Source: an uncultured Candidatus Saccharibacteria bacterium
GTDB taxonomy: Bacteria; Patescibacteriota; Saccharimonadia; Saccharimonadales; UBA10212
Length of the DNA stretch: 64,000 nucleotides
Assembly (NCBI GenBank): GCA_965231085.1
Contig: OZ246413.1
Location: 475,234 to 539,233, forward strand
Direction of reading: 5' to 3'
Within the stretch, counting starts at the first letter, position 1, and each line of letters begins with the position of its first letter. The position numbers were made by a program, and so were the translations under genes. Of the stretch, positions 6,811 to 55,870 are shown piece after piece. The notes under the pieces are model-generated. The model ran no database searches, was not told where the DNA came from, and saw only the letters and a list, made by a program, of their open reading frames with translations.

Positions 6811-8485
6811 CTTTAATCTTATTTACATTCTTTGGCACTTTAGAAACCCAGAATGGGCTGTATTTAACATCGACGGCCTTAACCCCCGTTATATTGCCAA
6901 TAATTATTTGAATATCGCCTTTTTTAAGGCCTTTTACTTGGTTTTTTACGGAGTTAGAGTCAAGCACTGGCACAGCTTTTGTATCTTCAGTAATGTTAAG
7001 CGTTGCGGCTGTATCTGAAGTTTGGTTAGACAGAGACACAGTTGCGCCAGCAAGCAAGTCGCTATCTTCGACTTTTTGTTTGGTTTTGTCTATCTGGCTG
7101 GCCAGAGCATTATTAATTGCTGCTTTTAAGTCATCCTTCTTTACGACTAATACACTAAATGTAATCTTAACGGTAACCGTAGCAGTTGCACCGGGCTGAC
7201 CAACCGCTGGACTAGCTGATGTTTGCGGATCGCCTTGCCTAAAAGTTGAAGCTAGAACATAAAACCCTTGCTCTCCAAGCTGAGCTTGAAAAGTCTTACC
7301 AAAAGCGTCGCTACTAGTAGTGCTAACTTTGGCCTTGGCGCCGTCTAGGTCGGCTTGCGAAACCGTTGGCTGAATATTGTCTGTGCCCCCCGATGTTGCT
7401 TTGGACGAGTTAGCCGTCACCCCACTTCGGTTAGCAACCGTAAAAGTGGCTGGTCCGATATTGAACTTTGTGCCGCCACTAATTGCAACGATATCGGATG
7501 CACTGGTCGATTGGAAAGTACATTTACCCCCGGATACCACTGGCGAAAATGTTAAGCTTTGCTGGGTTATAAAAGTTAGTCCGGCGCTAGTTATCCCGCT
7601 GCCGGCGGGGACGTCACTTGGTACCGTACCACTACAATCTCCGGCTGTCATAGTTACTGAGCCCTTGGCTTTATCACCATTATTTAATTGGCCCGTAGTT
7701 TGTACTTGCTGGGTTAAAGTCTGGTCGGAAGTTTTTAAAACAGCTGGGATAATGTTGCCTTTTAGATCTACGGTTTTAGCCTGATCTGAAGTAGTCATAG
7801 TAAAATTCGCCGTAACTGGTGTGCTGATAGTTTGTATGCTAATCGTCGCCTTTGGCAACACCGATACAGCTAGATATATAAAGACAATCAACCCAATAAT
7901 GGCTATCAAGCCTAGGCCTAGGGATATTCTGAATTTATCAAAATTTGGTACTTTAATTTTTGATCCTCCGGGAATTTTACTTAACTTAGATTCCTTAACT
8001 TCTGCCGTGGCTTCGTCTTGCAGCTCAACAATGTCCTTTTCCTCTTCCAACTCATCGGCTAGATCACCGATTGGTTGGTCGTAGTTAATTTTAATTGGCA
8101 AATCCTCATCTTCAAGTTCTGGGCTACTATCTTGTGTTAGTTCTTCGGTTTTAGATTCTTCTTCGGCAAGCCTGGGGGCTGGCGGAATTTCAGGCTTGGT
8201 CTGTAAATTCTTGGCTACATGAATACTCACAGCTCCGGCCAAAGGTAAAAGCGCGCTCTCGGCAGTTATCAAAACAACGTTCTTGTTGGCATTTTCGCTG
8301 CTTCTTTTTAGTAGCCGCATGTTTACTATGCTCTGTAGGGCGGTTGAGCGTTTTGGTAATACCAGAGCCACCACTTTTTCTTTAGCATTTTCAACCTTAT
8401 CGATAATTGAGGTTATCTCATCATCGACATCAATATAAATCGTGTCTTTGCCAGGTTTAGCTGGAGTTTTGGAATCTATTTTCAT
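6770..8485 (-). CDS. large membrane-anchored protein of unknown function in the ftsA-ruvX-mltG cluster
   Basis: 571 aa: acidic N-terminal region, one TM helix (ISLGLGLIAIIGLIVFIYLAV), then a Thr/Ser/Gly-rich C-terminal domain. Translationally coupled to ftsA (4-nt overlap at 8482-8485). Confidence 0.6.
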   Translation of the reverse strand: MKIDSKTPAKPGKDTIYIDVDDEITSIIDKVENAKEKVVALVLPKRSTALQSIVNMRLLKRSSENANKNVVLITAESALLPLAGAVSIHVAKNLQTKPEIPPAPRLAEEESKTEELTQDSSPELEDEDLPIKINYDQPIGDLADELEEEKDIVELQDEATAEVKESKLSKIPGGSKIKVPNFDKFRISLGLGLIAIIGLIVFIYLAVSVLPKATISIQTISTPVTANFTMTTSDQAKTVDLKGNIIPAVLKTSDQTLTQQVQTTGQLNNGDKAKGSVTMTAGDCSGTVPSDVPAGSGITSAGLTFITQQSLTFSPVVSGGKCTFQSTSASDIVAISGGTKFNIGPATFTVANRSGVTANSSKATSGGTDNIQPTVSQADLDGAKAKVSTTSSDAFGKTFQAQLGEQGFYVLASTFRQGDPQTSASPAVGQPGATATVTVKITFSVLVVKKDDLKAAINNALASQIDKTKQKVEDSDLLAGATVSLSNQTSDTAATLNITEDTKAVPVLDSNSVKNQVKGLKKGDIQIIIGNITGVKAVDVKYSPFWVSKVPKNVNKIKVVITHVAGSSSGQ

Positions 8486-9798
8486 ACTCTTAATACTTTA
8501 TTAAGTTTATCTCGTAGCCCCAGGTTTTGCGAACCATTTGAATTCAAGGTATCCACACCAACCCGCAGCAAACCCATGGCTGTTATAAAGGTATGGTCTT
8601 TGATATCACCGGTGGTGTCAGAAATACCAACGACCTCTTCGGGTTTGATGTGCTGAATTGTGGGGCGCTTGGTAAACGGCAAATCTCTGTGCCAATCTTC
8701 TTTTTCGAGCTGCTTAACCAACATGGCAAGTGATGAACCGCCGCCGCATAGCAAAAGTCGGTGGGGCAGATGGTCGAGCTTGTTAAATTCACCCAAAGCA
8801 AGTTCAACCCCGCTAGCCCAAACGTTAAGTGTTTTCGCCAAGGCCTTCTCTATAGCAAGAATATTGCCTTGGGCAACTCCACCGTCAGCTAAAGCAAGCT
8901 TGAGTTTTTCAGCTTTTACAAAATCAACATCCAGCTCTCTCTCGATTGAATGCGTAAAAGCTCGGCCACCAATACCAAACATCTTGGTCCCTTCTACGCC
9001 ACCTTCGTTGACTATAGCAATATCAGTTGTGCCACCTCCAACATCCATTAGAATAGCGCTCACCGAGCCATTAGGATCATCGCCCACTACTGATCTTGCC
9101 ACTGCAAACGGTTCAGCTGCTACGGCTAGTAGGTCCAAACTAAGCTCGGTGGCTGTTCTTTCTAGGGCACCAATGTGAATCATCGGTGCAAAGGCAGTGT
9201 ACATCTCAACCATTACGTCTTTACCCTGAAAGCCAACCGGATTAGTGACTTTATAACCATCTATTTCAATTCTTACCAAGGCGCTATTTACCAGTCTTAC
9301 TTCTACGTCCTTGCCTCCTAACTCCCAGGCTAGGTCTCGGCGGGCTTTAGTCTCAGCCCGTTCTTGGACAATGGCGATTATCTTTTCCATCTCGGCTACA
9401 TCAATTTCCTTGTTCGAATTGGTTCGCGTAAAATGCACCATGCTAGTTGTGCCTTTTACTAGTTCACCAGCAATGCCAATCACTACACTTTTGGCCTGTA
9501 TACCAGCTTGTTCTTCGGCTATGGCCAGAGCTTTGTCACAATTTTCTACGACAGCAGCAATATCAGATATTGCCCCCGCCTGCATATCAGCTAACTCCTG
9601 ATGGGCTCGGCCAACCCCTATGATCTCGACATTGTTGCCAACCACTCGGCCAACTAGAGCCTTAACAAATTCGGTACCGATATCTAGGGCTACAATATAC
9701 TCGCCCAAACTCTCCGATTTTTTGCCAACTTGTTTTGGAATTGGCAGTTTAGAAAGCCTGTTTTTTAGCTTGGTTAAATCTTTGGCTTTTTGAAGCAT
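8482..9798 (-). CDS. ftsA: cell division protein FtsA-like actin-fold ATPase
   Basis: Actin/HSP70-fold phosphate motifs ALDIGTEFVKALVG and MDVGGGTTDIAIV. Length 438 aa. Confidence 0.75.
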   Translation of the reverse strand: MLQKAKDLTKLKNRLSKLPIPKQVGKKSESLGEYIVALDIGTEFVKALVGRVVGNNVEIIGVGRAHQELADMQAGAISDIAAVVENCDKALAIAEEQAGIQAKSVVIGIAGELVKGTTSMVHFTRTNSNKEIDVAEMEKIIAIVQERAETKARRDLAWELGGKDVEVRLVNSALVRIEIDGYKVTNPVGFQGKDVMVEMYTAFAPMIHIGALERTATELSLDLLAVAAEPFAVARSVVGDDPNGSVSAILMDVGGGTTDIAIVNEGGVEGTKMFGIGGRAFTHSIERELDVDFVKAEKLKLALADGGVAQGNILAIEKALAKTLNVWASGVELALGEFNKLDHLPHRLLLCGGGSSLAMLVKQLEKEDWHRDLPFTKRPTIQHIKPEEVVGISDTTGDIKDHTFITAMGLLRVGVDTLNSNGSQNLGLRDKLNKVLRV

Positions 9799-9848
9799 AA
9801 TCAGATTGATTATATCATGATAAGTAATCCGCTACATCTGTTAGAATG

Positions 9849-9877
9849 TTGACGTTTGTGTGTTTTAGTATTATAAT
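9849..9877 (+). promoter_or_regulatory. near-consensus sigma70-type promoter facing GC-rich cassette A
   Basis: TTGACG (9849-9854), 17-nt spacer, TATAAT (9872-9877) on the plus strand. The only plus-strand gene downstream is the GC-rich ORF at 9948. Confidence 0.45.
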
Positions 9878-9947
9878 ATCAATTCTAGCTGATGTACTTG
9901 GCTAGTGCTTCGCCGCAAAATCTGCGACCCCGTTACCCGACGAAAGG

Positions 9948-10472
9948 ATGTGCCCTGTGCACGCACGCGGCATGGCAGTCTTCGACCCCAACCTGCCGCC
10001 CCACAAGTGCGGCTGGGAGGTCCAGAAGGCCCTCCAGACCCTCGACCTCAAGCCCATGGCAGCATTCGGGTTCGACTCGGCCAAGAAGGTGCTGCTGGTC
10101 GCGCACGTCGTGCGCGTCCCGGCCGAGGAGGTCTGGGCGCTCTACAGCACCCCGGTGTCCTACCACCTGCCCAGCAGGCTGGTGGTCGAGCCGGATGGCC
10201 TGGTGCTCGGGCCGGCCATGATCAGCCCGCTCCAGCAGGAGCCGTGCTTCGGCCTGCTGGAAATCTGGGGGCTCGAGCAGTTCGGCAACCCCGAGGAGCG
10301 GCCCAGCCAGCACCACCTGGTCGAGGTGCTCGAGGCCTACCACCAGATCACCCGGACGATCGGGCACTTCGACAGACGGCTGCCGCAGGACCAGCAGACC
10401 AGGTTCGTCGCCCTCGGGTCGATGATGCCCGACGGCATCCCGCTCGACAAGGGCCAGGCGGCGGTCAGCTAG
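9948..10472 (+). CDS. hypothetical protein, GC-rich cassette A
   Basis: 174-aa frame with almost every codon ending in G/C. AAAGGA lies at 9943-9948 with possible starts at GTG 9957 or ATG 9972. Overlapping ORFs in other frames lack this third-position bias. No family recognised. Confidence 0.7.
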   Translation: MCPVHARGMAVFDPNLPPHKCGWEVQKALQTLDLKPMAAFGFDSAKKVLLVAHVVRVPAEEVWALYSTPVSYHLPSRLVVEPDGLVLGPAMISPLQQEPCFGLLEIWGLEQFGNPEERPSQHHLVEVLEAYHQITRTIGHFDRRLPQDQQTRFVALGSMMPDGIPLDKGQAAVS

Positions 10473-10490
10473 GCCCACGGCCTAGCAAGC

Positions 10491-10549
10491 GGGGGCGCGC
10501 ACGTTCGCGCGCCCCCGCCCCCCAACTAACCCGCAAGGGTTATTTTTTT
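10491..10549 (+). terminator. tandem hairpins ending cassette A
   Basis: GGGGGCGCGC-loop-GCGCGCCCCC (10491-10516), then AACCC-GCAA-GGGTT followed by ATTTTTTT (10528-10549), a canonical intrinsic terminator on the plus strand. Confidence 0.6.
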
Positions 10550-11133
10550 ATACTTATTTTTGTATCTCTGTACAAATAAACAGCCGCTAGAATTGCAACG
10601 TCGCTTAATACTCCATATATCGGACGAACATACAAAACGCTAAGTGGTTTATTAACCAAGGCAAGGCTGCTAAATACATAAGCAATGGTGCCGATTAACC
10701 ATGGATAGGGCGCTTCAGATTTAGGATGTTTCTTTATCTTCAGGACAATCATTGATGTTGCGAAGACGTCTATCAAGACACTAAGCCAAATCGCGACCGA
10801 CGGGTCATTGGTTATGACCCAAGCAACGATGGTTGTAAGGCTTAAGGCCAGCAGGAAAATATCAAATTTTGAGGTATTGCGAGTGCCGTATTTGAATGAA
10901 AGACCGAGGATAACAAGATTACTTATTAAAAAAGTTAGCGAAATAAGAACCGATGCCCTTGCGCCCTTGGCGTACTGCGAAACAGTCACGATGCTATTCA
11001 TGATTGCAAATATAAACCAGCTAAATTGGTGTGGCTTTGTTCGACCAGATAAAATTGAGCGAATGTAGGGTATGGTGCAATAAATAGCCAAGATTACAGA
11101 TAGTAATCCGCAGAGATATACAAAAATATTCAT
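10540..11133 (-). CDS. polytopic membrane protein, family uncertain
   Basis: 197 aa, about six hydrophobic helices. The N-terminal segment IPYIRSILSGRTKPHQFSW is faintly PQ-loop-like. Confidence 0.55.
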   Translation of the reverse strand: MNIFVYLCGLLSVILAIYCTIPYIRSILSGRTKPHQFSWFIFAIMNSIVTVSQYAKGARASVLISLTFLISNLVILGLSFKYGTRNTSKFDIFLLALSLTTIVAWVITNDPSVAIWLSVLIDVFATSMIVLKIKKHPKSEAPYPWLIGTIAYVFSSLALVNKPLSVLYVRPIYGVLSDVAILAAVYLYRDTKISIKK

Positions 11134-23525: not shown

Positions 23526-23670
23526 TTTTAAAACCTGAAGGCTGACATTGATATTATTGTAGCTTTTATAGGTGTTATTGAAAAGAGAGGGAAGGTGAAA
23601 GCCCCCGGGGCGACCGCGCTATGTAAGCTGCGGGCCGCCCCAGATGTTGTTGTGCGCCAGTTGCTGCGAG

Positions 23671-23937
23671 TTAGCCCGTGGCGCTGATGGTGCGCTGCGG
23701 CACACGAAAGCACTCGAGAATCTGGCTGAGAGTCGACATCCCCGACTCGTTAAGCCTACCCCGCCAGCTGAAGATGTTCCTCACCCTATCCGGGTCACCC
23801 TCGTACATCTGGACCATCTCCCGAATCTGCTCGAAGGCATCCATCGGCTTGCCCGCCGTGAGATGAAGACTGATCTCCTCAATCAGCTCATCGGTACGCT
23901 CACCGCCGTAGACGTAAAAGCCACCATCAAGGGGCAT
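23671..23937 (-). CDS. 88-aa hypothetical protein, GC-rich cassette B
   Basis: GGAAGGAG lies 6-8 nt upstream of the ATG at 23937. Product MPLDGGFYVYGGERTDELIEEISLHLTAGKPMDAFEQIREMVQMYEGDPDRV..., family not recognised. The track ORF extends to 24012. Confidence 0.55.
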   Translation of the reverse strand: MPLDGGFYVYGGERTDELIEEISLHLTAGKPMDAFEQIREMVQMYEGDPDRVRNIFSWRGRLNESGMSTLSQILECFRVPQRTISATG

Positions 23938-23959
23938 TTTAATTCTCCTTCCCTCGTTT

Positions 23960-24092
23960 TGTGAATGTTCATCTGACTTGCCTGCCAGATGTATGGTAGG
24001 GGTAGCAACCACGGTTCGGCTGGTTGGCCTAGTTGCGTAGTTGGTTGCTACCCCGGCCCTCGAGTCAAACGGGAGTGAAACTCGAGGACCGG
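23960..24092 (-). promoter_or_regulatory. GC-rich structured 5' leader of cassette B
   Basis: Hairpins CCGGTCCTCGAG/CTCGAGGGCCGG (24053-24092; one G-U pair only on the minus strand), GGTAGCAACCA/TGGTTGCTACC (24001-24052) and CATCTG/CAGATG near the RBS. Confidence 0.4.
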
Positions 24093-24094
24093 AG

Positions 24095-24125
24095 CAACAA
24101 AAAACCGGACTGCTGTAGTCCGGTT
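24095..24125 (-). terminator. intrinsic terminator (minus strand) downstream of typA
   Basis: Minus strand reads CCGGACT-ACAGC-AGTCCGG followed by TTTTTTGTTG. Confidence 0.6.
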
Positions 24126-30393: not shown

Positions 30394-30527
30394 AATATTA
30401 GCCTCCTTACATCTTTATAATACCCCTACAAAAGCTAATAATGTAGATGTTTCACGAATTTATAAAATTGATTCCGAGGGGGAGGCGCCTGGCTAGCTGC
30501 CAGACACCCCCCTTACTCGGCTTGCCG

Positions 30528-30929
30528 TCAGACGGGTGCCAAGACGATGCGCCCGGCACGACGCACGAAGCGATGACGCTGGCGACGGTGACGACGAGAG
30601 ATCGACGTCTGCGGACGCAGCTTGACGGTAGTCCAGGGGCTGTGGCCGTCCAACCACTCGAGCTGCCCGGTTACCGGGTTCATCCTGGTCACGTACTTGT
30701 AGCACTCGCAGCAGGTGCCGACCATCACACCATCGGCCCTGGTGACCCAGATCTTGGCGATGCAGCACGGCGAGACGAGCTTGCTGGCAGTCTCCAACGC
30801 CTTCACCGGGTTCGTGATCCCCTTGAAGCTCAGGGACGGACCTTTGCCTCGCTGCCTCTGCCGGCGCGCATGGGCCACCACGTAAGCGGCGGACCCTACC
30901 GGGTACTTACTCAGGTCACCTCGCTTCAT
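30528..30929 (-). CDS. 133-aa basic Cys-rich hypothetical protein, GC-rich cassette C
   Basis: GAGAGGAG lies upstream of the ATG at 30929. Third codon positions are mostly G/C. Product MKRGDLSKYPVGSAAYVVAHARRQRQRGKG...SPCC...TCCECYKY...RRHRRQRHRFVRRAGR. The antisense 177-aa ORF lacks this bias. Confidence 0.65.
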   Translation of the reverse strand: MKRGDLSKYPVGSAAYVVAHARRQRQRGKGPSLSFKGITNPVKALETASKLVSPCCIAKIWVTRADGVMVGTCCECYKYVTRMNPVTGQLEWLDGHSPWTTVKLRPQTSISRRHRRQRHRFVRRAGRIVLAPV

Positions 30930-30960
30930 GGGAAGCGCTCCTCTCAGTCGACTGAGGGAT

Positions 30961-45809: not shown

Positions 45810-46002
45810 TTGGTGATCCCAAGGGGAGTCGAGTCACCTTCGGCGACCCCCGAACTTCTCGATTGCCAACAAGTTGGTATCGGAAGATTCGTTTCCGAAC
45901 TGCCTTCTTGGCAGTTCTCACCCTATTGCCTCCGGCAATTAGTATTCGACGCTCAGTGAAATCAATCTAAAAAGCCCACCCTATCGGGTGAGCATTTTAG
46001 AT
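45810..46002 (-). repeat. 193-bp tRNA-3'-end-linked structured element, copy 1 (downstream of tRNA-Glu)
   Basis: 45810-45831 is identical to the last 22 nt of tRNA-Glu (46003-46024). The conserved core is shared with 55678-55788 (identical blocks ggcgacccccgaacttct, ttcgtttccgaactgcc, ggcagttctcaccc). No ORF. Confidence 0.75.
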
Positions 46003-46077
46003 TGGTGATCCCAAGGGGAGTCGAACCCCTATTGCCGGGATGAAAACCCGATTTCCTAACCATTAGAAGATGGGACC
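46003..46077 (-). tRNA. tRNA-Glu (anticodon UUC)
   Basis: Hand-folded cloverleaf: acceptor GGTCCCA/TGGGATC, anticodon arm TCGGG-TTTTCAT-CCCGG, T-arm AGGGG-TTCGACT-CCCCT, encoded CCA. Confidence 0.85.
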
Positions 46078-46368: not shown

Positions 46369-47193
46369 TTAGTCACGATTTCTACGGTTACGCACAGCGT
46401 AATGTAGGGCTGCACCAGCCGCACTAGAACCAGCGAAAATTCCTAGAACATCGCCAGGACCAGTATTTGGTAGAGCCTTAGTTGTAGTAGCAGCAGCAGT
46501 CGTTACTGTAGGAGTAACTGGAGCTGTTGGCATACTAACAACTGCGGTAAAGGTAACTATCGCAGAGTACTCAAAGCATCCATGCCAGTCACCAAAGTTT
46601 GCAACTAAGGTACTAGGGTTTGTGAAGTTTGCAATGTGAATCGGTGCAGTCACAAAAGGGCCCTGACCATTTTGACGGTAAGTAGCCATTACTGGCGCGT
46701 TGGTGTCGAAAGTTAAGGTAAATGGACGAGCACCATTAAGGTCAACCGTATCGTTGACGTAACGTGGGTTGGCATTGTCGGCACTGATTTGGGCTGCAGC
46801 CTGTTGGCTTGTACGAGCACCCTGGGGTAGCATGACAAGCATTTGAGTGTTTAAAGCTGTAGCAGCACTAACACCAATCGCATTTGGGTTGGCGTCGTTA
46901 TGGATATATACACGCATAGTAATGCGCTGACCATCCGTAACGTTCATATTGTCTAGATATGCACCGTTAGACGAAGCATCTCTAGCATCAAAGAAAGCAC
47001 GTTCGTCGCCGTAGTTAACAGCGTTCGTGATTGAGTTAAATGTTACATAGTTCGCACCAGCACAACTCGTAGCACTCGCACACTGGAAAGTGGCACGATC
47101 TGATGGGGCGTAACCGGCAAACACACTAGCTGGCATGGCGATCAAAACGAAAGCCGATACAAAACTAGCTAAAGCAAGTTTAAATTTGTTCAT
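46369..47193 (-). CDS. LPXTG-anchored surface protein
   Basis: Signal peptide, then a C-terminal LPNTG, a hydrophobic stretch and RNRRNRD (a sortase sorting signal). Confidence 0.7.
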   Translation of the reverse strand: MNKFKLALASFVSAFVLIAMPASVFAGYAPSDRATFQCASATSCAGANYVTFNSITNAVNYGDERAFFDARDASSNGAYLDNMNVTDGQRITMRVYIHNDANPNAIGVSAATALNTQMLVMLPQGARTSQQAAAQISADNANPRYVNDTVDLNGARPFTLTFDTNAPVMATYRQNGQGPFVTAPIHIANFTNPSTLVANFGDWHGCFEYSAIVTFTAVVSMPTAPVTPTVTTAAATTTKALPNTGPGDVLGIFAGSSAAGAALHYAVRNRRNRD

Positions 47194-47276
47194 ATTAGTT
47201 CCTTTCTGAGGAAGTTAAATTAAGTTAAGTATAGTTGGAAAGAGACAAAACCAGATAGTTATTGAGCTTGAAAGTT

Positions 47277-47357
47277 GGCTGCCGGGACTCTTAAATTCGC
47301 TGGTTAAAGCGAAGAGTCACCGGCAGCCGGTGGAGGATCCCCCGAGGGGGACCCTCC
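47277..47357 (-). terminator. two consecutive GC-rich hairpins ending cassette D
   Basis: GGAGGGTCCCCC-TCG-GGGGGATCCTCC (47332-47357) and the long imperfect hairpin GGCTGCCGG...CCGGCAGCC (47277-47328), both just downstream of the stop at 47387. Confidence 0.5.
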
Positions 47358-47386
47358 AACCGAGCTACCGTTGTCGAACGTGGCGG

Positions 47387-48931
47387 TCACCCGCCGATGC
47401 AGTTGCCCATCTGGTCGGCCGGGGCGAACCCGATGGTGCCGTTCAGATGCCAGCACTGCTGGTTGCCTGAGCCGGTTGAACCGGGCGAGCCGCCCGCACC
47501 CACCGAGCCTCCGGGGCCGTTGCCGACCCCGAGGGACGGATTCTTGGGCTGCGGGGTGATGGGTGTCGTGGTGGTCGGCGGCGTGGTGGTCGGGGGAGAC
47601 TGGGTCGTCTCCGTGACCTGATTGTTGAACTTCAGGTCTCCCGACACGCCGACGATCCAGGTCCTACACAGCTGCCCGTCCTTGGGCTGCATGTGCATCC
47701 CTGCGAGCCAGTCGCTGCGCTCGCAGGCCTTGATCTTGGTGCCCTTCACGACGGGGATGGGAGTGCCATCGGCGTACGGAAGGATGTGGGGCTGGCAGTC
47801 GATAGCGGCGATGTTCGAGTCGAACTCGGCACCGTTGTCGACCGTGACCTTGAGCGGCAGCTTGATGCCGGCGTAGCCGGCGTAGTCGGCTGCCACTGCA
47901 GGCCCGGAGGCCTTGGTCAGGCACTTGCTCACTCCGGCGATGCCGGAGGTCGGGATGGCGGGGCTGGTCACGACTCCGCCCTTCTTCGGACGGTTGTAGA
48001 AGATCCAGTCGTTGCCTGCCCGATCGACGTGATCGAGCACCCAGTCCTTCGCCGGCACCTCGGACACGACACACTTGGCGCCGGCCGGGATACCGTAGTG
48101 GATGGGCTGACCGTTGTTCCAGCGGCGAACCTGCTGGTATGACGACGGGTTTGTGCAACGGATATCGAACAGGAAGTTGACGCGCCCGGTGAACCCGAGC
48201 GTGATCTTCCTGATCGAGCCACGGCTGGGCTTCGGAGCGGCCTTCGCTGGCCCGCAGTTGAGGGTGTTCTTGTTCCCCCCGACCTGCGAGCAGTTGTCGG
48301 CCGTGATGATGCCACCGCAGCCTGCGACGACTGCACCAGGGCTGTTGGTGACGGTCACCTTGCACCCCGCGGGGGGATTGCCTTGGGTGACCGTCTTAGC
48401 CGGTGCCGGTGCCGGCGTCGACTTCTTGACGGTGGGCGGCGGAGCCGCGACACGCGCGATCGGCACGACGTTCGAGCAGACCATCGCGAACTTCACGATG
48501 ATCTTGCCGCCGTCAGGCAGTACACCCGTGACCTTCCAGGCCGCGAGCGTCCCACCGGTGAGCCGACCGCTCACGAAGGTCTCGTGAGCGCCGGACATGA
48601 CGCCGAAGTAGCTGTTCTGCAGGATCCAGTCCTTGGTCGCCGACGAGGCACCCTTGATCAGGGCCGTCTGCTCGGCGGGGCTGAGACCCGCGCAGTGCAT
48701 CGCCCGCTTGCCGGCCGTGCTCGAGAGCGCGGAGTGAAGCTGGCTGGGGCTGTAGACCCCACCCTTGACGACTGCGTCGCCTCCGGGATGCCGCCAGTCG
48801 GCCTGTCGGACCTTGCAGTCGGCAGGAACACGGAACTGCGGGTTTGCCGCGGACGCGCTGAGCGCGCCGAACGCGGCGAGAATGGCCGCGACCACCAAAG
48901 CGGTGATTGCGGACTTCTTCGTAACGGCCAT
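47387..48931 (-). CDS. 514-aa secreted Cys-rich protein with a Pro/Thr linker, GC-rich cassette D
   Basis: GGAGGTGG lies 6 nt before the ATG at 48931. Signal peptide MAVTKKSAITALVVAAILAAFGALSASA. PPTTTPPTTTTP linker and a Gly-rich C-terminus. Several overlapping ORFs in other frames are high-GC artefacts. Confidence 0.75.
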   Translation of the reverse strand: MAVTKKSAITALVVAAILAAFGALSASAANPQFRVPADCKVRQADWRHPGGDAVVKGGVYSPSQLHSALSSTAGKRAMHCAGLSPAEQTALIKGASSATKDWILQNSYFGVMSGAHETFVSGRLTGGTLAAWKVTGVLPDGGKIIVKFAMVCSNVVPIARVAAPPPTVKKSTPAPAPAKTVTQGNPPAGCKVTVTNSPGAVVAGCGGIITADNCSQVGGNKNTLNCGPAKAAPKPSRGSIRKITLGFTGRVNFLFDIRCTNPSSYQQVRRWNNGQPIHYGIPAGAKCVVSEVPAKDWVLDHVDRAGNDWIFYNRPKKGGVVTSPAIPTSGIAGVSKCLTKASGPAVAADYAGYAGIKLPLKVTVDNGAEFDSNIAAIDCQPHILPYADGTPIPVVKGTKIKACERSDWLAGMHMQPKDGQLCRTWIVGVSGDLKFNNQVTETTQSPPTTTPPTTTTPITPQPKNPSLGVGNGPGGSVGAGGSPGSTGSGNQQCWHLNGTIGFAPADQMGNCIGG

Positions 48932-49254
48932 CGAAACCACCTCCTAGGTGATCGCGGTTTGTCGGGTGGCCTACCCGATCTGCTAGGCTTAGCAAGACAC
49001 AAAACCAATAAATAATTACGGGCTTGGTGTCTTGCTAGACTCTAAAACAGATGAACATTGGTAGTCGGTTATGTGGGTATTAAAACCCAATAACTATCTA
49101 GTTTGCTCTAATTTAGTATTTGTTATCTAAATCAGGTACAAACAGTCTGAATTGTTAAGGGATTCCCTCCTCCACCTCTGTGGCGAAGATGACCATATTC
49201 TAACAGATGTGAATACTTTTGTCAATATGCTTGTGTTTTTTAAGATGTTTATAA

Positions 49255-49995
49255 ATGAAAAGGCCCTCCGGGTGGAGGGCCTAGGGCTGTGGGGAGCGCT
49301 ACAAAGCGCTGCGCCCAAGCGGGAGCTTCGTATCCGAGCACGCTTATCGACGAATGCCGACCAGGTGCTCTAGGAGAGCTCTACCAAAGTTGGTCGAAGA
49401 CGCGAGGGGGCCGTACCTCTGTGGTGTACGGCCCCCTATCGGGCTGTGGGCGCTGATGATTTGCGCCCTTGGCTGCAAGGGATTTAGCGTCCCCGCAGCT
49501 TCTTGCCATGAGCCATACTATCTGCTCATGAAACTTCGCTGACCAGGGTTATGCCACACCCTGTTGCGTAGTCAGCGAAGGGTGCCAAAGTGAAGGCTGC
49601 GTAACTCCGCCGGTTGAGCTTTCGCGCCATGGAGCCGCTTTGACACCATTGTCGGAGACAGCTCCGCCAGGACTGCCTCCGACACCTTTCGCCCAGTGTG
49701 ATTCGGTCCCACCACTACTCGACACTATCGAGCTGGAGACTGTCTTTACCACACTGGGCGAACTTATGCTGCAAATATGTGGGCTGAATGACCTCCCGTA
49801 TCATCCAGCCCGGTCGGGGACTACCCCTTCTGTCACGGCACGAGGCTTGTTGCGCAACTACCCCGTACTGAATCGAACGAAATAACGAAAAGCGGTGCCT
49901 GCAAGTTACAGCCTCTCGGCTTTTGGGAGAACTCGCCCGGCCCCCAGCTTTGAAACACTGGACGCTCTCTGAACGCTACTTTTCTTCGTTCGACC
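49255..49995 (-). ncRNA. candidate large structured non-coding RNA (family unknown; strand tentative)
   Basis: GC-enriched with no ORF over 81 aa in any frame. Many perfect helices (49534-43/49571-80, 49406-16/49426-36, 49692-700/49750-58). Minus-strand terminator AGGCCCTCC-ACCC-GGAGGGCCT followed by TTTTCATTT at 49261-49282. Confidence 0.45.
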
Positions 49996-55677: not shown

Positions 55678-55870
55678 TGGAGGGCCAGGCGGGACTCGGT
55701 CGCCTCCGGCGACCCCCGAACTTCTACCTAGCAAACAAGTTTGCAGGTGAAGGTTCGTTTCCGAACTGCCCCGGCAGTTCTCACCCCCGACGTTCTTTTT
55801 GATATGTCGTGGAAACGAGCCCGCTGCTCATGCCAATGAAAAGACCCCACGCAAGGTGAGGTCATTTCAC
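55678..55870 (-). repeat. 193-bp tRNA-3'-end-linked structured element, copy 2 (downstream of tRNA-Lys)
   Basis: 55678-55698 is identical to the last 21 nt of tRNA-Lys (55871-55891), again at an offset of exactly 193 bp. The core is homologous to 45832-45923 with compensatory helix changes. No ORF. Confidence 0.75.

Follow-up and report, generated by a model that had tools for sequence, protein, structure and literature searches.

A probable horizontally acquired, GC-rich orphan gene in the alaS–ftsA gap of an uncultured Candidatus Saccharibacteria bacterium

The window analysed here is a stretch of 64,000 nucleotides from an uncultured Candidatus Saccharibacteria bacterium (GenBank assembly GCA_965231085.1, contig OZ246413.1, positions 475,234 to 539,233), and the element under study is a short islet of high G+C (GC) content beside ftsA, together with its gene, open reading frame (ORF) A. 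ORF A runs on the plus strand of the window from a GTG at 9957 to a TAG at 10470–10472 (9957..10472; 171 aa plus stop) and lies inside a compositionally foreign segment of ~630 bp and ~69 % GC at 9898..10527, delimited by GC profiles at 40-nt and 300-nt resolution. We hypothesize that ORF A is a complete single gene, recently acquired from a high-GC donor and kept as an expressed accessory gene; on the features described below we consider this probable, though well short of assured. To judge by composition, the most plausible donor is the Saccharibacterium's own actinobacterial host, or else a mobile element, such as a phage, carried by that host. A first-pass annotation of the DNA had proposed a foreign expression unit inserted upstream of ftsA, and this proposal is supported by a GC content at third codon positions (GC3) of 0.96 and by the absence of the gene from 80 related loci.

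The GC profile climbs from 0.25–0.35 at 9800–9880 to 0.60–0.82 over ~9898–10527 and drops to 0.15–0.40 beyond, the islet as a whole standing at 0.69 against a background of ~0.44–0.45 for the 64-kb window. The islet holds a 5′ leader, a ribosome-binding site, ORF A and two GC-only hairpins. GC at the first, second and third codon positions of ORF A (GC1/GC2/GC3) is 0.70/0.39/0.96, compared with a GC3 of 0.36–0.47 in 35 native genes of the window, and the codon adaptation of ORF A is 0.55, compared with a native range of 0.71–0.82 when the same 35 ORFs serve as the reference. Almost every codon ends in G or C (164 of 171), much as the first-pass annotation had noticed. This codon-position pattern, which indicates that the plus-strand frame is the true coding frame, is what is expected of a gene whose evolution took place at a genomic GC of ~70 %. 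The GC periodicity begins in the start region, stops at the stop codon and is confined to the ORF, and an in-frame TAG lies upstream at 9903–9905; ORF A is therefore a complete gene and not a fragment of a longer one. Because the pattern of GC1 above GC2 and GC2 far below GC3 is bounded by the ORF, ORF A must have been a coding sequence, read in this frame, while it evolved in some high-GC genome; and because a GC3 of 0.96 has hardly drifted towards the resident composition, its acquisition would be recent. In-frame alternatives to the GTG are an ATG at 9948 (174 aa), which gives the version reported by the ORF lister (9948..10472, 174 aa), and an ATG at 9972 (166 aa). The plus-strand ORF of the first-pass annotation is thus present, its given length of 172 aa counting the stop codon.

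Three overlapping open frames occur at the islet: the 174-aa frame on the plus strand, a 224-aa plus-strand ORF in another frame and a 181-aa ORF on the minus strand. GC-rich DNA leaves several frames open by chance. The 224-aa third-frame ORF was rejected as a gene, its shifted codon-position GC of 0.88/0.67/0.43 being that of a shadow ORF. The 181-aa antisense ORF (9933..10478, minus strand; 5321–5866 in L001) is the only gene call at the islet in public data from NCBI and Logan sources, being called in L001 and L002. It was chosen by automated callers in both Logan assemblies, is stored as protein P0001 (NCBI and Logan) and points in the same direction as the flanking alaS/ftsA operon. That it represents the real gene is nevertheless very improbable, for its codon-position GC of 0.95/0.40/0.70 mirrors a high-GC coding frame and is unexpected for a genuine one, its GTG start lies within the hairpin at the end of ORF A (hairpin 1, below) and lacks a good ribosome-binding site, its product is also without homologues, and chance open frames such as the 224-aa ORF are common in GC-rich DNA. 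Most likely, to judge from its codon-position composition, the antisense ORF is not a gene. None of the three possible sense-strand ORF A proteins occurs in a collection of 15 billion proteins, and a search with the antisense product, used as a proxy for mis-called relatives, found that product alone. Since the callers picked the antisense ORF and the sense versions are absent from the collection, the real product of ORF A would have gone unannotated; we attribute the mis-call to gene callers trained on a low-GC background.

The signals around ORF A have the arrangement of an expression unit, and each element listed in the first-pass annotation was found at the position given there. A sigma-70-type promoter, TTGACG-17-TATAAT (9849..9877, plus strand), matches 11 of 12 consensus positions and lies in AT-rich, native-like DNA; its −35 and −10 elements, spaced within the 16–18 nt usual for the type and upstream of a gene, would start transcription near 9882–9885. 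Six sites in the window score at least 11/12 against the sigma-70 consensus, compared with a mean of 1.1 in block shuffles, and at five of the six an ORF begins immediately downstream in matching orientation; three precede the high-GC orphan ORFs A, C and D (the latter two are described below) and two more precede ordinary genes. Because near-consensus sites mostly precede gene starts, the consensus appears to predict gene starts in this organism. By our own estimate, as opposed to any tool result, ~0.014 such promoters would be expected per ORF within 300 nt and in the right orientation. An extended −10, TGTTAGAAT (9839..9847, plus strand), is a possible second promoter element at the level of consensus evidence. 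The 14-mer ACATCTGTTAGAAT recurs exactly at 49197–49210 on the minus strand, as the −10 of a TTGACA-17-TAGAAT promoter. A Shine–Dalgarno-like AAAGGA (9943..9948, plus strand) can be read 8 nt before the GTG at 9957; of the starts open to it, the GTG and the ATG at 9972 had been named before, and the ATG at 9948 is also in frame. AAAGGA falls within the GC-rich segment and so probably arrived with ORF A. The 5′ leader gave no credible Rfam match at E ≤ 1 and folds no better than shuffled sequences (z = +0.56), which sets it apart from known riboswitches and leader RNAs.

Downstream, three hairpins follow one another on the plus strand. Hairpin 1, GCTAGGCC-CAC-GGCCTAGC (10468..10486), has an 8-bp stem and a CAC loop in both the minimum-free-energy and centroid structures, overlaps the TAG stop at 10470–10472 and has no U tract. 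Hairpin 2 (10489..10518), a perfect 12-bp G+C stem of 100 % complementarity with a 6-nt loop, likewise has no U tract, and accordingly neither of these qualifies by itself as an intrinsic (Rho-independent) terminator. Hairpin 3 with its T7 run does (TAACCC-GCAA-GGGTTA plus T7, 10527..10549, stem 10527–10542, recovered by a terminator scan and by folding). Its right arm holds the TAA stop (10540–10542, minus strand) of the convergent gene, as had been claimed, and with T7 it overlaps the last two Lys codons of that gene. The 121-nt hairpin segment folds at −61.2 kcal/mol (z = −4.79), and 0 of 200 shuffles were as stable.

ORF A is the sole plus-strand unit between ftsA (8482..9798, minus strand) and a minus-strand gene for a 197-aa multi-pass membrane protein (10540..11133), an arrangement that had been reported earlier and that the ORF coordinates confirm. 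The membrane-protein gene is native-like (GC3 0.40, codon adaptation 0.72), and its product has no Pfam family above threshold. A likely ftsA promoter, the extended −10 TGATATAAT (9809..9817, minus strand), can be read in the sequence and diverges from that of ORF A; as it lies only ~11 nt before the ftsA ATG (start 9798), a leaderless or very short-leader ftsA messenger RNA (mRNA) would be implied. TGnTACAAT-like elements are also found upstream of ftsA in two related loci, L008 and L025.

The housekeeping genes of the window include ftsA, alaS, mnmA, typA, murD and the gene for the ATP synthase beta subunit, and its FtsA is 60–77 % identical to FtsA of uncultured Candidatus Saccharibacteria and Saccharimonadales genomes, which places the organism among the Saccharibacteria. 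The species-level genome set holds no close sequenced relative of the source organism, and 80 Saccharimonadales ftsA loci were compared. In about 70 of the 80, alaS is directly upstream of ftsA, across gaps of 30 to ~3700 bp, many of them 30–60 bp. Neither ORF A nor the 197-aa membrane protein had a tblastn match in any of these loci. With gap sizes so variable and ORF A absent from the relatives, the alaS–ftsA gap would be a variable spot and ORF A specific to its lineage; nor was there a homologue of similar GC at the locus in low-GC relatives, the finding that the first-pass annotation had held would make ORF A an ancestral gene. High-GC islets were rare in the ~945 kb of relatives' ftsA loci scanned, yet the same gap holds one in L008 (5421–5937), L025 (4781–5940) and L054 (5561–5920). 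Their ORFs are non-homologous small orphans of 81–112 aa with GC3 of 0.83–0.87. TTGACA-17-TATTAT lies upstream of the 112-aa ORF of L008 (GC3 0.87), while in L025 an 81-aa ORF (GC3 0.85) follows a 12/12 promoter and an 82-aa ORF (GC3 0.83) follows one of 10/12; the gap ORFs of both loci diverge from ftsA, as ORF A does, behind TTGACA-17 promoters matching 10–12 of 12 positions. From these arrangements the alaS–ftsA gap appears to be a recurrent insertion hotspot. The islet in the L054 gap adjoins an IS1595-like transposase.

Composition changes sharply at both islet edges, and the genome was apparently assembled from mixed-community sequencing runs, as would fit a chimera in which high-GC reads of a co-occurring organism had been wrongly joined to a Saccharibacteria contig. 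Such an error is extremely improbable here. Two Sequence Read Archive (SRA) runs (SRR13076587, SRR14271372) yield stretches, 13.3 kb and 10.2 kb long, that match the window at 100 % identity across both islet junctions, the islet gene call is present on 4 contigs of up to 669 kb in NCBI and Logan sources, a count equal to that of ftsA, and the right junction lies inside the hairpin that holds the neighbour's stop codon, unlike a random mis-join. The agreement of two separately assembled runs, with the four-contig count, makes a chimera very unlikely, and the junctions, on whose support the first-pass annotation had made its reading depend, are base-identical in both. An engineered marker or reporter cassette was also rejected, there being no match among 15 billion proteins or in plasmid records and the islet being present in several public assemblies.

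The ORF A product is a soluble, mildly acidic protein of ~19 kDa with an isoelectric point of ~5.9. It has no transmembrane segment, its highest 19-residue Kyte–Doolittle mean being 1.24, and no recognizable motif, with Pfam, NCBIfam, PADLOC, PHROGs and PDB sequences all negative; on both points the earlier reading of the protein holds. A word-indexed search of 5.8 billion protein clusters found nothing, an exhaustive phmmer search over 1.84 billion representative proteins gave 0 matches at E ≤ 0.001, back-translated peptide scans of viral and metagenome contigs found nothing, and blastn and tblastn comparisons of the islet and ORF A with phages and plasmids returned nothing meaningful. The only blastn match, 53 nt of GC-rich sequence in Nonomuraea, was dismissed as chance, as were matches to Xanthomonas at E = 0.9. 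The actinobacterial or phage source suggested in the first-pass annotation is therefore not shown, since no similar DNA or protein was found. The structure prediction that it had called for could be made with AlphaFold2, on the single sequence as no alignment was possible, and the resulting model is uninformative, its mean predicted local distance difference test (pLDDT) score of 38.6 being too low to support a search by fold.

Three further high-GC islets with orphan ORFs, all on the minus strand, lie in the window, and none of ORFs B, C and D matches a known family in Pfam, PHROGs, PADLOC or NCBIfam. ORF B (~23940..23674, 89 aa, GC3 0.75; islet 23590–24110, GC ~0.59) lies between metG and typA and has a ribosome-binding site, GGAAGGAG, and GC-rich hairpins at 24000–24120. 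ORF C (30929..30531, 133 aa, GC3 0.82; islet ~30441–30960, GC 0.62) follows an 11/12 promoter, TTGAGA-17-TATAAT (30989–30961), and a ribosome-binding site, GAGAGGAG; its product is a Cys-rich, basic orphan whose protein cluster has a single member, on 4 contigs. ORF D (48940..47387, 517 aa, GC3 0.86; islet 47241–49000) encodes a secreted, Thr/Pro-rich protein behind the TTGACA-17-TAGAAT promoter at 49225–49197. It is flanked by inverted repeats of 25–30 nt at 47243–47272 and 49080–49109, with the core CTAGATAGTTATTG, and the repeats also flank a 49 %-identical homologue in the Saccharibacteria contig L084 (2167–2193 and 3575–3601), one arm matching the window arm at 27 of 27 nt. From this layout, the ORF D unit looks like a repeat-bounded cassette, unless the repeats serve to pair the two untranslated ends (5′ and 3′) of the mRNA; the repeat pattern was not found in viral contigs. 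The only homologues of ORF D are two, 49–55 % identical, in Saccharibacteria contigs L083 (3613–5043) and L084, and that of L083 adjoins murD, as ORF D does in the window. All three copies are 63–72 % GC islets in surroundings of 44–52 % GC.

ORF D invites the alternative that selection keeps synonymous-site GC high, ORF A belonging to a class of Saccharibacteria accessory genes with host-type codons. The ORF D homologues are only 49–55 % identical and yet each is a 63–72 % GC islet, one of them next to murD; large protein searches with ORFs A and D found no homologue from a high-GC organism; and GC1 and GC2 of several islet ORFs are below what truly high-GC proteomes would lead one to expect. 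Set against this, ORF A has no homologue in which the ORF D pattern might be seen, and repeated independent acquisition from an unsampled high-GC mobile gene pool is simpler. No mechanism is known that keeps GC high by selection, and we give this alternative a small chance of being correct. A stronger version, in which ORF A belongs to an undescribed class of Saccharibacteria accessory genes kept in high-GC3, host-type codons on purpose, has only a slight chance. The idea grows from a pattern of single-gene units with consensus promoters, orphan products and the same hotspots in different genomes, and from the GC-richness that ORF D has kept across 50 % protein divergence. It may be set beside the report that Patescibacteria codon usage is ‘complementary’ to that of their GC-rich hosts (10.64898/2026.06.21.733656). 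On one reading, poor translation of such messages in the epibiont would be intended, giving tight dosage control of a harmful effector; on a more radical reading, nucleic acid would pass into the host, whose ribosomes would then translate the messages efficiently.

By the marks commonly used, ORF A has the composition and codon usage, outside the resident range, of a horizontally acquired gene, and it is absent from the syntenic position in relatives; with zero homologues, no donor lineage emerges from nesting among them. Marks of integration are likewise wanting. The best inverted repeat flanking islet A (9880–9895 and 10580–10595, 14 of 16 nt) has the TAGAAT −10 motif as its core and was equalled or bettered in 21 of 300 shuffles; a repeat-bounded mobile cassette was rejected for islet A, as the flanking repeat is not significant. 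Near islet A the repeat motif that bounds islet D is absent, none of the listed ORFs between alaS and ftsA is a recombinase, and islet A thus has none of the integration machinery of a mobile element or genomic island. An integron gene cassette was rejected too: ORF A has its own 11/12 promoter and no array or nearby integrase ORF, and no attC-like site was seen 3′ of it, the palindromes being simple perfect hairpins, although no dedicated attC model was run. The word cassette in the first-pass annotation should accordingly not suggest a mobile unit of integron type or one bounded by repeats, the islet having no significant flanking repeats.

Our current working hypothesis is that a fragment of ~630 bp landed in the length-variable alaS–ftsA gap and brought with it a ribosome-binding site, the coding sequence and the two GC-only hairpins. 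ORF A would be transcribed from the near-consensus sigma-70 promoter, which shares its stretch of AT-rich DNA with the divergent promoter of ftsA, and its transcript would end at the hairpin-plus-T7 terminator common to ORF A and the convergent membrane-protein gene; the strong promoter may offset the poor translation predicted for host-type codons. Transfers between Saccharimonadia and actinobacterial hosts, in either direction, have been reported at >99 % nucleotide identity (10.64898/2026.09.16.751625), up to 13 % of a Patescibacteria genome can consist of genomic islands (PMC12455944), and the known hosts of Saccharibacteria are GC-rich (10.64898/2026.06.21.733656). It is these GC-rich hosts, the reported exchange and the abundance of islands that lead us to favour the host, or a phage or mobile element of it, as the source. 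As the islet ORFs examined are all orphans, they would not be a random sample of a host chromosome, and a fast-evolving accessory gene pool is favoured.

Several observations weigh against this hypothesis. No donor was found in protein, phage, plasmid, viral or metagenome searches, and this counts because an ordinary actinobacterial chromosomal gene normally has some relatives there. The GC2 of 0.39 and the Ala (8 %) and Arg (5 %) contents of ORF A are low for a typical 70 % GC proteome, and the islet ORFs are orphans throughout, none of the nine others examined having a Pfam family and none of the eight scanned against PHROGs a match. No integrase, transposase or significant flanking repeat marks the integration of islet A, the single-sequence AlphaFold2 model of ORF A reached a mean pLDDT of only 38.6, and expression of ORF A is a prediction from its sequence signals. 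Host-type codons, moreover, are predicted to be poorly translated in Patescibacteria (10.64898/2026.06.21.733656).

Much of the same evidence would suit inert captured DNA, a random high-GC fragment taken up by a naturally competent, DNA-scavenging epibiont through illegitimate recombination, in which ORF A is intact because the event is recent and the upstream promoter has no selected purpose. A GC3 of 0.96 with almost no drift bespeaks a recent event, the lack of homologues leaves no sign of purifying selection, the codon adaptation of 0.55 is a very poor fit to resident genes, and islet A lacks mobility genes and significant flanking repeats. We regard this explanation as unlikely, if to be taken seriously. 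What the fragment holds is precisely a single gene, complete from its ribosome-binding site and start codon to its stop and hairpins, with no remnants of adjoining genes; ORF A directly follows, in the right orientation, a promoter that ranks among the best six of the 64-kb window; the layout of promoter and high-GC ORF recurs at ORFs C and D and in L008, L025, L083 and L084; and the islet gene call is on 4 contigs, as is ftsA. That such ORFs stand behind near-consensus promoters again and again, and in several genomes, speaks for purposeful expression rather than inert debris.

As to what such a gene might do, Actinomycetota attack Saccharibacteria with Esx-secreted effectors (PMC13622651), and one may speculate that ORF A has a role in epibiont–host conflict, for example in neutralizing a host-secreted toxin, although we think this rather doubtful. 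Acquired interbacterial defence genes of the orphan immunity type form a known group (Ross et al. 2019 Nature, as cited in PMC13622651). ORF A resembles these in being a small, soluble, cytoplasmic, fast-evolving and horizontally acquired orphan, in an organism targeted by toxins from high-GC hosts. It differs in having no match to an immunity family, no adjacent toxin or recombinase and no clustering, its neighbours being ftsA and the membrane-protein gene; it therefore cannot be counted as a member of that group, and the likeness amounts to a functional guess.

Other known systems offer partial parallels. Horizontally acquired genes and islets at hotspots between conserved core genes are a familiar feature of bacterial genomes, and most foreign DNA is AT-richer than its recipient. 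ORF A shares with hotspot-islet genes its atypical composition, its absence in relatives, its orphan status and its place between variably spaced core genes; unlike such islets, islet A is a single gene of ~630 bp without integrase, transposase, tRNA (transfer RNA) target or flanking repeats, its GC is offset upward by 25 points and it has a near-consensus promoter. The exchange between Ca. Phosphoribacter and Ca. Lutisaccharimonas and their hosts (10.64898/2026.09.16.751625) has in common with our case a Saccharimonadales recipient and a composition fitting high-GC Actinomycetota hosts, but the donor match there exceeds 99 %, whereas none was found here and host origin is deduced from composition alone. 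ORF A recalls integron cassettes as a compact, inserted-looking single-ORF unit with GC-rich palindromes after the stop; integron cassettes, however, lack a promoter of their own and end in attC beside intI/attI, and ORF A has its own promoter. The ORF D unit of the same genome is likewise a high-GC orphan with a consensus promoter between core genes, but its inverted repeats of 25–30 nt are conserved in L084 and ORF A has no significant flanking repeat.

A number of observations were made elsewhere in the window. Directly beside ORF D, a gene of native GC (46369–47193, minus strand) encodes a secreted protein of 274 aa that carries an LPNTG sortase motif at its C terminus, and a homologue of this gene, at ~65 % nucleotide identity, flanks the ORF D homologue in L084. 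Some ~640 nt at 49241–49880 are GC-rich (0.58) and without codon periodicity; 49255–49560 are strongly structured (z = −4.5 on the plus and −5.7 on the minus strand), and the minus strand of the region ends in a hairpin followed by UUUU at ~49261–49283. Rfam, phage and plasmid comparisons gave no match for the region, nor is it conserved in L083; a novel structured RNA or the decayed copy of a foreign gene could account for it. An exact 23-nt direct repeat (45810–45832 and 46002–46024) duplicates the 3′ end of the tRNA-Glu gene (46003–46077, minus strand) at a distance of 192 bp and looks like what is left of an attachment site. Downstream of both tRNA-Glu and tRNA-Lys lies a 72-nt repeat of 82 % identity (45833–45904 and 55699–55770).

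A single orphan gene acquired by horizontal transfer is by itself an ordinary kind of finding, and ORF A, as a horizontally acquired orphan gene at a hotspot, is of an already known class. What goes beyond the routine is the extreme GC offset, upward and in the reduced genome of an epibiont, the annotation of the wrong strand in public data and the recurrence of non-homologous high-GC orphans with consensus promoters at the hotspot in other Saccharimonadales. For high-GC islet genes in low-GC Patescibacteria the mis-calling may be systematic, so that they would be missing from protein databases. The islet genes are also relevant to a recent suggestion, namely that the codon usage of Patescibacteria evolved so as to keep host messages from being translated. 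If our hypothesis is correct, the islet and its siblings testify to genes passing from a high-GC partner to an environmental Saccharibacterium that is uncultured, and by their composition this lineage, which has no cultured representative, would have a host or donor of ~70 % GC. Saccharibacteria are now genetically tractable, and orphan genes of host-like composition that extremely reduced genomes keep under their strongest promoters would be candidates for roles in host interaction or counter-defence.

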